DNA from: Catajapyx aquilonaris
Taxonomy: Eukaryota
Assembly: GCA_000934665.2 (NCBI GenBank)
Contig: JYFJ02003186.1
Span: 1 to 45,303 of the forward strand
Direction of reading: 5' to 3'
DNA length: 45,303 nt
Shown here: piece after piece, positions 18,801 through 21,800 of the stretch
How the letters are laid out: each line of letters opens with the position of its first letter
Position numbering within the stretch: position 1 is the first letter of the stretch
Notes under the pieces: model-generated
What the model was told of the DNA's origin: nothing
Databases searched by the model: none
What the model saw: only the letters and a program-made list of their open reading frames with translations
Made by a program: the position numbers and the translations under genes

Positions 18801-21800
18801 ATGACTAAAAAATCACAGTGTTTGACCACCCTTGCCTTTTTCTCTTCTTCTTCTTCTTTTTTTTTTTTTTAAAAAAGGAGTTAGATGAGGGTGTGGCTGA
18901 GGCTCGTTACTCCTTCCCTGGAGCCTTGAAGCATCAGGCAAGGGCTTAGGGCCATTACCCAAACCGCCCCGCTTTTCCGGGAGCCCTTATCTGCTCCCCG
19001 GCTGACAGCCTGAAACTTTGCTTAGTGTCAATGGGGAAAATGGCGGCTCTCGATGGGCCATAAATCTGCCTGCGAGCAGACCCCCCACCAGGAAACTGCC
19101 ACGACATTCCCTCAACTTTAAAAAGAAAAAAAAACGAGGCCACATTCCTAAATGAAGCCACTCGGCACTCATTTTCATCTGGAGGTGCTTTTAACTCACT
19201 ATAAGCACCATCTTTTCTTTTTTTTTTTAAAGATCAATAGGGTATGTGTCACTGATTCGGTGCAAACTACAGCGATATCTCCTTTCATGAGGCTCTCTGG
19301 GCGGACGTGCTGGTGCGCATGATTATGGTCGAAGGCCCGTCGAAGGAAGGCGTGCTTCGAGGCATCACTTGTGGCTCGACCTCACGCACGCACGCATACA
19401 CTTTTCGACAAACAGCTATGTACTACAAGAGTCTGGTCATCTTCCTGGTCCTGGTCCTGATGGCTGGTCAGCACACAACCGGCGCACTTCCCATCAGTTT
19501 GGGAAAGGTGAGCAGAAAACGTGGTTCGCTAAATATCGGCGCTTTTGTGGAAATCCGATTACGTGTGGCGGGCTACGGGCCGACACCCCCTTTTCCCTCC
19601 CCTGCCTAATAATCCTGCTCGAGCTGCTTCCCCAAGTGCATGTCAGAGCTGGAGGGGCCCTCACCACCTAATCGATCCAGACTAAAAAAAAAAATAAGAA
19701 AAAGTTTCGCTTTTACAGAAGCGACACAATGCGTTGAACTTCTATAAGGGTTTGTCCACAAGTAGCTGTGTTGCCCTGATCATTTTTCGGTGACATTTAG
19801 TGGCTGAAAAATTGATCAAAATCGGAGGGTCGGGTTCGCATATTGAAACACTTGATATAGCCGATGTTGTAAAACAGGGTAGGATATTCAGATTTCACAT
19901 GCTTTAATGGTATAGGCCAAGATGCTATAGCACGTGAACAATCCACAAATTGTTATCCTATCCAATGTTGAACTGAGGACTTCTTGGGCAATTCAACATC
20001 GGCTGATGAGTGTCATATGTCAATATGTTATCTGTCTGGATGGAAATCACCAGATCATCATGCGATGTAGAGCGTATCTTGGCAACAAAATAGTGACATT
20101 TTGATTCATAAGGACGTCGCCCTCGAGGCTAACTAGTGTGGGTTGGTGACCTTCACTGTAGAGTAAAGCTTACTAACCATGCATCAATCGCTGCCTGAAC
20201 AAATCATGTCCAAAGCATATCCCTCGACGATAGCTATTATACAGTAATTGGTTATGACATAACCACTGACATTTGAAGAAGATTTCACTGAATTAACTGA
20301 CGTAGGCGTGAAGAGCTGATTGCCTCAACACGAATTAGGGACAATCCCCGATGATGTGTACGGTATTCACAGTATAAGTAATCTGAGGTTTGAGCTGATA
20401 TCCGCTGGGCTTTAATGTTTTTTTCATGTTGCAATGCATGTTATTTAATAGCAAGGAAATGCAACGGACATACAGAAAATCATTATCTTACCCTAAATTT
20501 AAACTTTTTCTTAGACTCTCTCTTACACAACTACACAACAGCTCAATTACTTTTGTCATAAATTTGCAAAAACCACAAATGCCTTTTTCGTGTATAAACG
20601 CATTTTCAACCCCCTTCAATTGCAAATGAAACTTCCAGGCGCTGTTTATAGGACATGTGCAGCCTGCTTCTGGTCAAAGTGAATAAATGACGCTGCAGTC
20701 GATTTGTTCAAGTCGCATGCCCCTTGAGAGCAAGACGCAAGTAATCAGCTAAGAGGGTCTACCCTCGCTTATTCCAGGCCTGAGACACTCAAGACAGAAC
20801 TATATAGTCTGCGTCTGCAATTGCTTCGCTATGTAACTGTTGCAGTTTAAAGTACTACATTTGCACATCGACAACGCCGTTAATGTTACTGGACCATACG
20901 CAAACTCCAGCAATTTGGCCGAAAACCGACTTAAGCTCGCTTTCCGAATGTAAATGATCATGACTTTCCCAGCATCCCTAATTGCTCCTGTGCAATCCCC
21001 CCCCCCTCCTCCCCATGGCATGCAGGTGGCTAAGAGTCCTCATTTTCCACACAACAACTCCACTACAGCGCTTGGCCAGTTGGCGCCATAATTAGTCCTT
21101 TATTAATTGCCGGGGCAAACTAGCCCGACACTGAATAACAACGGACTGGTTATGTGCGGTTATCATGCACTAAAACCTTGAGTCCAGTCGATGACCCTAT
21201 GGGAAGCCCGATTGCAACACACCCGTTGATGAACCCAACTCATTTAATCCAATGACCACCACCCCCTACTTCCTCCTCCTCCTGGGAAATTCATCCTGCA
21301 AATTCTGCCCACGACATTTTTACAATCATAAATAAAGTGTGTCTGATATTACATGTGCATGTATGCAAAACAAAGAAAGTGGTCGTATATTCAGTAAAAG
21401 AAGCTCCATCCTCAACGCCCACACGTGTCAGGAGGCTAATTAGAAGCGGTCCCAAGCCTCAACTGTAACCTCCATTAGGCCTCGTTTACATGCACTGGGC
21501 TCCAGGGCACGTTTGTGCCTCTCAACTCCCCTCCTAACTAATGGGGCCTCTGCGCACCTCACTTCCTCCACTGCACCCAACCCACACACCCCCTCCTAAA
21601 AACAAAAAAAAAATACACACAAAAAAAAGTAGAAGCACTTCTAGAGAACATTTTCCAAATGCACAGCATTTATGTGCATGTTTTGTTTTTGGCAGAGGCC
21701 ACCGATGACCATGCAGAACACTCCATTGTGGCACTGCCTCCGGTTTCGACGCGTGGACTACTTCAAGAGGTGCTATCATCGAGGACCGCCGCCATTCTAA

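Follow-up and report, generated by a model that had tools for sequence, protein, structure and literature searches.

A probable unannotated gene for a small secreted peptide, antisense within a WDR75 intron of a japygid dipluran

A 45,303-nt contig of Catajapyx aquilonaris (the window) probably contains a small, unannotated secreted-peptide gene of this japygid dipluran, an insect relative that lives in soil. Two plus-strand coding exons that together specify a 64-residue precursor are supported by splice sites, codon use and a signal peptide, and we consider the gene likely to be real as modelled. Its product appears to belong to no recognised family; the gene is probably an orphan, though one of familiar design.

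Coding exon 1 (19418..19507, plus strand) runs for 90 nt from the ATG at 19418, and its 30 codons specify a predicted signal peptide, a five-residue piece and Gly-Lys. It ends in AAG|GTGAGC, which has the highest donor score of the 177 GT sites that the 19.0-22.5 kb interval contains. The predicted phase-0 GT-AG intron that follows (19508..21695, plus strand; 2188 nt) closes on a T-rich AG ranking third of 170 AG sites over the same interval. Coding exon 2 (21696..21800, plus strand) comprises 34 codons and a TAA stop (21798-21800), beginning with the Arg that completes KR and continuing into a 33-residue cationic peptide. The phase-0 join of the exons yields the 64-residue precursor, and the splice itself makes the Gly-Lys-Arg site (G-K|R). 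These residues agree exactly with the precursor proposed for this locus in an earlier, sequence-only reading, including G-K|R across the 19507/21696 junction. That reading had also called the gene invisible in the ORF track, which holds for exon 2 (absent from the 80-aa ORF list) but not for exon 1, which is part of a 117-aa frame between two stops (19256-19609).

When acceptor strength and codon use are scored together, 21696 is the best phase-0 partner of exon 1 between 19.5 and 26 kb. Extending the scoring to 28 kb (460 AG sites) places it sixth; all five sites with higher scores fall at 26.1-26.2 kb, score negatively as acceptors and are shadows of a minus-strand repeat ORF. A search for a branch-point consensus before this acceptor found none, and the AATAAA nearest to the stop codon lies at 23750, 1.95 kb beyond it. 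The 5′ region (19200..19417, plus strand) has a TATA-like TATAAG at 19200, upstream ATGs and a possible UTR acceptor AG (19414-19415) with a branch-like CTCAC. Two of the upstream ATGs (19319 and 19325) are in frame and may extend the precursor's N-terminus.

Codon use was assessed with a synonymous-codon model built on 1483 codons, all from other genes of the same window. Exon 1 scores +10.3 in its predicted frame, a value attained by none of the 3265 overlapping intron windows without stops and by 1 of 5000 base shuffles. For exon 2 the score is +8.6, attained by 4/2643 intron windows, 4/566 GC-matched windows and 22/5000 shuffles. The remaining four plus-strand frames of the two exons score between -0.3 and -5.2, and each exon has one minus-strand frame at +5 to +6, but with stops. 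On the plus strand, coding-type codon use is thereby confined to the predicted frame in both exons. The alternative ATDDH frame of exon 2, raised in the sequence-only reading as a challenge to the gene, scores -4.7 and was rejected. A joint test for an ATG, a hydrophobic core and a strong donor has 19418 as its sole match in the window and finds no match in any of 12 simulated windows. Looser settings add one minus-strand site and a T-rich frame at 22095-22188 (plus strand). The latter, in the 3′ flank, is a weaker hydrophobic ATG frame with a good donor; T-runs account for its hydrophobicity, which is probably due to chance.

These measurements bear on the alternative that there is no gene as modelled, with either the two-exon combination arising by chance or a real exon 1 being spliced to other exons or into another frame. 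The moderate statistics of exon 2 (22/5000 shuffles) and a codon model drawn from this window's own 1483 codons leave some room for it, as do the lack of a homologue in any search, the absent branch-point consensus and the distant AATAAA. It would nevertheless have to account for an exon 1 of a kind seen once in the window and in none of 12 simulated ones, for a preference of both exons for the predicted frame alone, for an acceptor surpassed only by repeat-ORF shadows, and for a splice join that happens to create G-K-R. We regard this alternative as unlikely.

The sequence-only reading had described the gene as nested and antisense, and an exon match and a phase-0 splice bear this out: the plus-strand peptide gene lies within a 7.5-kb intron (16274..23777, minus strand; 7504 nt, phase 0) of a minus-strand WDR75/Utp17 gene. 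The exon on the 5′ side of this host intron (23778..24131, minus strand) matches Pfam PF23769 (E 8.9e-09) and residues 608-706 of the 830 in human WDR75 (E 3.7e-05). Minus-strand exons within 32-34 kb, together with the one at 23.8-24.1 kb, match the two WDR75 propeller profiles. The two last predicted exons (16173-16273 and 15854-16106, minus strand) have in-frame GT-AG joins, with a codon score of +5.8 for the small one, and about supply the length of WDR75 tail left after residue 706; neither has a database match of its own, which is the one caveat on the nesting.

Several other features of the window were recorded. Another WDR75 intron holds a 355-aa frame (26116-27183, minus strand) that matches no Pfam family and contains 16-residue acidic repeats in three to four tandem copies; short direct repeats come after this frame (25400-25900), and the whole looks like a mobile-element remnant. 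A HARBI1-like DDE gene and two Myb/SANT frames occupy 35274-41535. Alpha-tubulin usually ends in a long acidic C-terminal tail; the divergent alpha-tubulin gene at 11917-13872 (minus strand) has a very short C-terminal tail without a long acidic stretch.

According to its hydrophobicity and the -3,-1 rule, the precursor begins with a predicted signal peptide that has a basic n-region and a hydrophobic core (mean hydropathy 3.7), with cleavage after residue 22 or 23. The 33-residue peptide has a net charge of +5 (range +5 to +6), a pI above 10 and 18-24% aromatic residues. Its two cysteines, Cys44 and Cys56 of the precursor, form a Cys-x11-Cys loop (21735..21773, plus strand) that is predicted to close by a disulfide and that contains an R-x-R-R furin-type site (21741-21752, plus strand), a putative cleavage site. 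The C-terminal tail, HRGPPPF (21777..21797, plus strand), ends in a free Phe. By these rules the general layout of hormone and neuropeptide precursors is present: a signal peptide, basic cleavage sites around short peptides and an amidation signal.

The explanation that we favour, with confidence a little short of even, is a convertase-processed, disulfide-looped, receptor-directed signalling peptide of no known family. The gene, apparently single copy and antisense within its WDR75 intron, would be transcribed independently to give the 64-residue prepropeptide, which its signal peptide would direct into the secretory path. A convertase cut at G-K|R would give an amidated five-residue piece and the 33-residue peptide with one disulfide. 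An optional second cut at the furin-type site in the loop could yield a C-terminal peptide of 15 residues, which the disulfide would continue to tether. Judging from anatomy alone, the basic aromatic loop, Pro-rich tail and free Phe might act as a neuropeptide, hormone or cytokine, and the target might be one of the animal's own receptors, most likely a class A GPCR.

The G-K-R and R-x-R-R sites, the statistics of the gene model and a processing scheme of the apelin/Elabela type support a signalling role, as do an apparently non-amphipathic core, the lack of an excess of kB sites and the single copy. It is weakened because no homologue was found, so that the Cys pair, cleavage sites and tail are without demonstrable conservation, and because the +5 charge suits a defence peptide equally and two in-frame ATGs lie upstream. 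Passages of PMC4770511 indicate that neuropeptides are usually conserved across hexapods, which counts against a signalling role for an orphan.

The sequence-only reading had proposed an unannotated neuropeptide or hormone, or else an antimicrobial peptide. The secreted-peptide gene is upheld by the splice, codon and signal-peptide evidence, with a neuropeptide or hormone as the best guess, but the suggestion of a thanatin- or arenicin-type antimicrobial hairpin is weakened. Thanatin and arenicin are single-disulfide, cationic antimicrobial peptides rich in Arg and aromatic residues, and the peptide here resembles them in its Arg/aromatic-rich loop, +5 charge and one Cys pair. It differs in its Pro-rich acid tail and amidation-type propiece, in matching no solved peptide by sequence or fold, and apparently in not being amphipathic, its helix score being equalled by 80% and its strand score by 72% of 5000 shuffles. 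The sole structure model, made from the single sequence, is a low-confidence helix and not a hairpin (pLDDT 68, pTM 0.31), and a fold search with it returned no match. The kB, GATA, E-box and AU-rich words at the locus all occur at expectation, with no enrichment of promoter or UTR motifs.

The broader possibility of a cationic, single-disulfide host-defence peptide, either thanatin/arenicin-like or acting on an intracellular target via its Pro and Arg residues after removal of a short propiece, seems to us improbable as well. Its charge, pI above 10, aromatic content and Cys pair would suit such a role, as would a host that lives in soil, and rapid evolution and orphan status are common among defence peptides. 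The amphipathic moment, however, does not rise above that of shuffles, no solved peptide or hairpin model supports the comparison, kB and GATA sites are not in excess, and the gene is single copy. With two cysteines, and being neither Gly-rich nor Cys-free, the peptide is also unlike the five springtail families described in passages of PMC10051947.

We think it quite unlikely, more so than a defence role, that this is a rapidly evolving exocrine peptide (from semen or a spermatophore, saliva or glue, or associated with cuticle) that acts externally or on mates or prey, although its small size and orphan status fit. Drosophila sex peptide has the same Cys-x11-Cys spacing, but there is no match among solved peptides and no paralogue cluster, and a literature search on japygid gland peptides gave nothing. 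Insect GBP/ENF/stress-responsive cytokines and secapin are also small secreted single-disulfide peptides, and a spacing of 11 is within the GBP range given in passages of PMC6439351. The GBP/ENF motif as defined there, C-x2-G-x4,6-G-x1,2-C-[KR], has no match in our peptide, which lacks both motif glycines, and the Secapin profile PF17521 did not pick the peptide locus.

At the DNA level the locus is single copy apart from one contig (L003), which represents its second haplotype and spans the last 11 codons and 3′ flank. The haplotypes show 0 differences over 37 coding nt and 6 over about 410 flanking nt outside a gap, stretches too short to show selection. In the 3′ flank, a stretch of N and poly-C (21835-21860) corresponds to about 85 ordinary bases in the second haplotype, which points to a probable mis-assembly or polymorphism of the window at this place. 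Two paralogue candidates were rejected: L002 (E 0.7) has the same Cys spacing but no credible signal exon, and the match at L020 is not anchored at the stop. This protein search of the animal's own genome is insensitive for short peptides, with a query of the allatostatin C-type peptide AST-CCC missing AST-C.

Searches further afield returned no relative. A word search of proteins of 28-90 aa with the 51-aa frame as query found none, and HMMER, run against 1.84 billion representatives, gave one match only, to a 6637-aa repeat protein whose score is the sum of seven 7-bit pieces without the first Cys and which we rejected as a repeat artefact. PDB sequences gave 0 matches at E 10, the ESM Atlas no usable match, and Pfam on exon 2 no family at E 1 or E 10, with filters that drop weak matches. 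A metagenome scan produced 321 pattern stretches, of which 0 were confirmed. Five metagenome loci matching a degenerate tail pattern were taken as chance: four overlap other long frames, and the fifth (L015), read fully, has no signal exon and no second Cys. These negative results are limited by the few close relatives in protein databases; a word search with the WDR75 exon was also empty, and hence provided no orthologous introns for comparison.

A full-text literature search for the tail words, outside subscription journals and bioRxiv supplements, gave papers unrelated by title, and the PMC4770511 supplement (8,023 characters, from which precursor sequences may be absent) had 0 matches. Literature searches for apelin in invertebrates yielded no such peptide; supplements with precursor sequences may contain a relative. 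Mitochondrial observations were made in the same genome as well. The COX2 encoded by the mitochondrial contig shares 92% identity with Japyx solifugus, 85% with Occasjapyx japonicus and 79% with Parajapyx, as befits a japygid dipluran. On this contig (table 5), a leucine tRNA-like stretch lies between cox1 and cox2, where ARAGORN makes no call, and a mitochondrial-type nd2-cox1 contig (L007, G000:C5905) has several cox1 frameshifts and is either a nuclear copy or an assembly error.

If real, this gene means that early-branching hexapods have, among their signalling or defence peptides, a secreted one that had gone unrecognised. According to passages of PMC4770511, neuropeptide lists for these animals were built by homology to known families, and lists so built miss orphans. 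The gene would bear on the origin of apelin signalling only if its tail were conserved across arthropods or a matching receptor were found.

The same genome contains a canonical AST-CCC-type gene (L021, G000:C30) and an AST-C-type gene (L022, G000:C139), both off the peptide's contig. The peptide shares with allatostatins C, CC and CCC and the somatostatin-type cyclic peptides a dibasic site, a Tyr-aromatic-Lys-x-Cys block and a Phe eight residues past the Cys, as in the animal's own AST-CCC. When its last 14 residues are aligned with that AST-CCC at the terminal Phe, in a register picked after the fact, four positions match, including Tyr, Lys and Cys, and the dibasic site is one residue off; the BLOSUM score of 20 was attained by 0 of 20000 shuffles. 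The corresponding alignment to AST-C has p 0.011. BLASTP of the peptide against AST-CCC found no alignment. The peptide's ring is of 11 and not 6 residues and sits upstream, and it lacks the Cys-x6-Cys ring as well as the F-x-P/A motif and penultimate Cys by which passages of PMC8851493 define the family.

One could explain this mixture by a strongly diverged paralogue of the allatostatin C/somatostatin-type cyclic peptides; it would have shed the C-terminal ring and acquired a Cys upstream. Besides the alignment scores, this would fit the finding of two family genes by pattern here, compared with the three that crustaceans commonly have (passages of PMC11959706); a third, AST-CC, was not among the 6 examined of 37 looser pattern matches. 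The post hoc register, the empty BLASTP, the missing family hallmarks and the location of the canonical genes on other contigs weigh against it, and we consider such descent very unlikely.

The tail HRGPPPF is identical to that of apelin at 5 of 7 positions, with a further Lys/Arg substitution. The chance of a 5/7 match is 3.4e-6 under host frequencies and 4.6e-5 under the exon's own, per comparison; with an assumed few hundred known tails and few hundred candidate peptides per genome, 0.3 to 4 matches of such quality are expected. Against human apelin-36 (Table 1 of PMC6838674), 9 of 34 gap-free positions are identical by eye, compared with 3.2 expected (permutation p 0.0015), and the Trp of each peptide lies at an equal distance from the C-terminus. 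The likeness extends slightly beyond what the sequence-only reading had noted. The RPRL motif, which passages of PMC6731456 describe as critical for apelin binding, is absent, with its second Arg alone matched. Pfam Apelin (PF15360) has no match on exon 2, and a scan of the genome with this profile gave four places, all sub-threshold and none at the peptide locus. The tail at one of these (L012) resembles apelin to the same degree, and its frame is without any sign of being a gene. At another (L011), a hydrophobic ATG frame (164-283) lies 1.3 kb upstream of a sub-threshold match (1501-1590) with an R-x-R-R site.

The sequence-only reading had cautioned that the HRGPPPF resemblance is short and may be convergent or due to chance, and the missing RPRL, the lack of a profile match and a vertebrate-only receptor clade agree with that caution. 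Apelin likeness is cheap, because the L012 tail is equally good and AST-CCC resembles the peptide too; the tail is most likely convergent or a chance product. A true arthropod homologue of apelin or Elabela that signals via an unrecognised apelin-type receptor could draw on the tail identity, the apelin-36 alignment and shared Trp position, and a similar precursor size and furin-type site. We nonetheless consider it extremely improbable, given the profile matches that all lie elsewhere, the missing binding motif and a receptor clade, that of APLNR, described as vertebrate-specific in passages of PMC10792014. The same passages connect this clade next to the opioid/somatostatin receptor cluster. 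This adjacency, and the occurrence in a single peptide of an apelin-like tail together with a block like that of AST-CCC, would allow an arthropod survivor of an old cyclic-peptide lineage linking allatostatin C/somatostatin-type ligands to vertebrate apelin. We give that idea hardly more credence than apelin homology; if true, protostomes would have their first apelin-like signalling system, one overlooked on account of a gene that is tiny, split and nested. The animal, a free-living predator of soil animals, would have no reason to mimic a host's apelin.

Two vertebrate systems can be compared with the peptide, both of which, according to passages of PMC6731456 and PMC6315173, derive from short precursors cut at basic sites to give an aromatic C-terminus. 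Elabela (Toddler/Apela) was likened to the peptide in the sequence-only reading. It is indeed of similar size (a 54-aa precursor, furin-cut to shorter forms), basic, and endowed with two Cys and dibasic sites, but the Cys spacing departs from it: Cys39 and Cys44 are separated by 4 residues, compared with 11 here, and passages of PMC6315173 describe Elabela, which has an invariant C-terminal 11-mer, as conserved in vertebrates. Neither Pfam nor the solved chains gave an Elabela match to the peptide. Apelin differs in having RPRL and its own profile and in lacking the two cysteines of our peptide. Apelin and our peptide are nevertheless both made as small signal-peptide precursors with a basic cluster holding a furin-type site and an H-[KR]-G-P-x-P-F tail that ends in a free Phe, and by this analogy the peptide may, like apelin, serve as a short, basic ligand ending in Phe.
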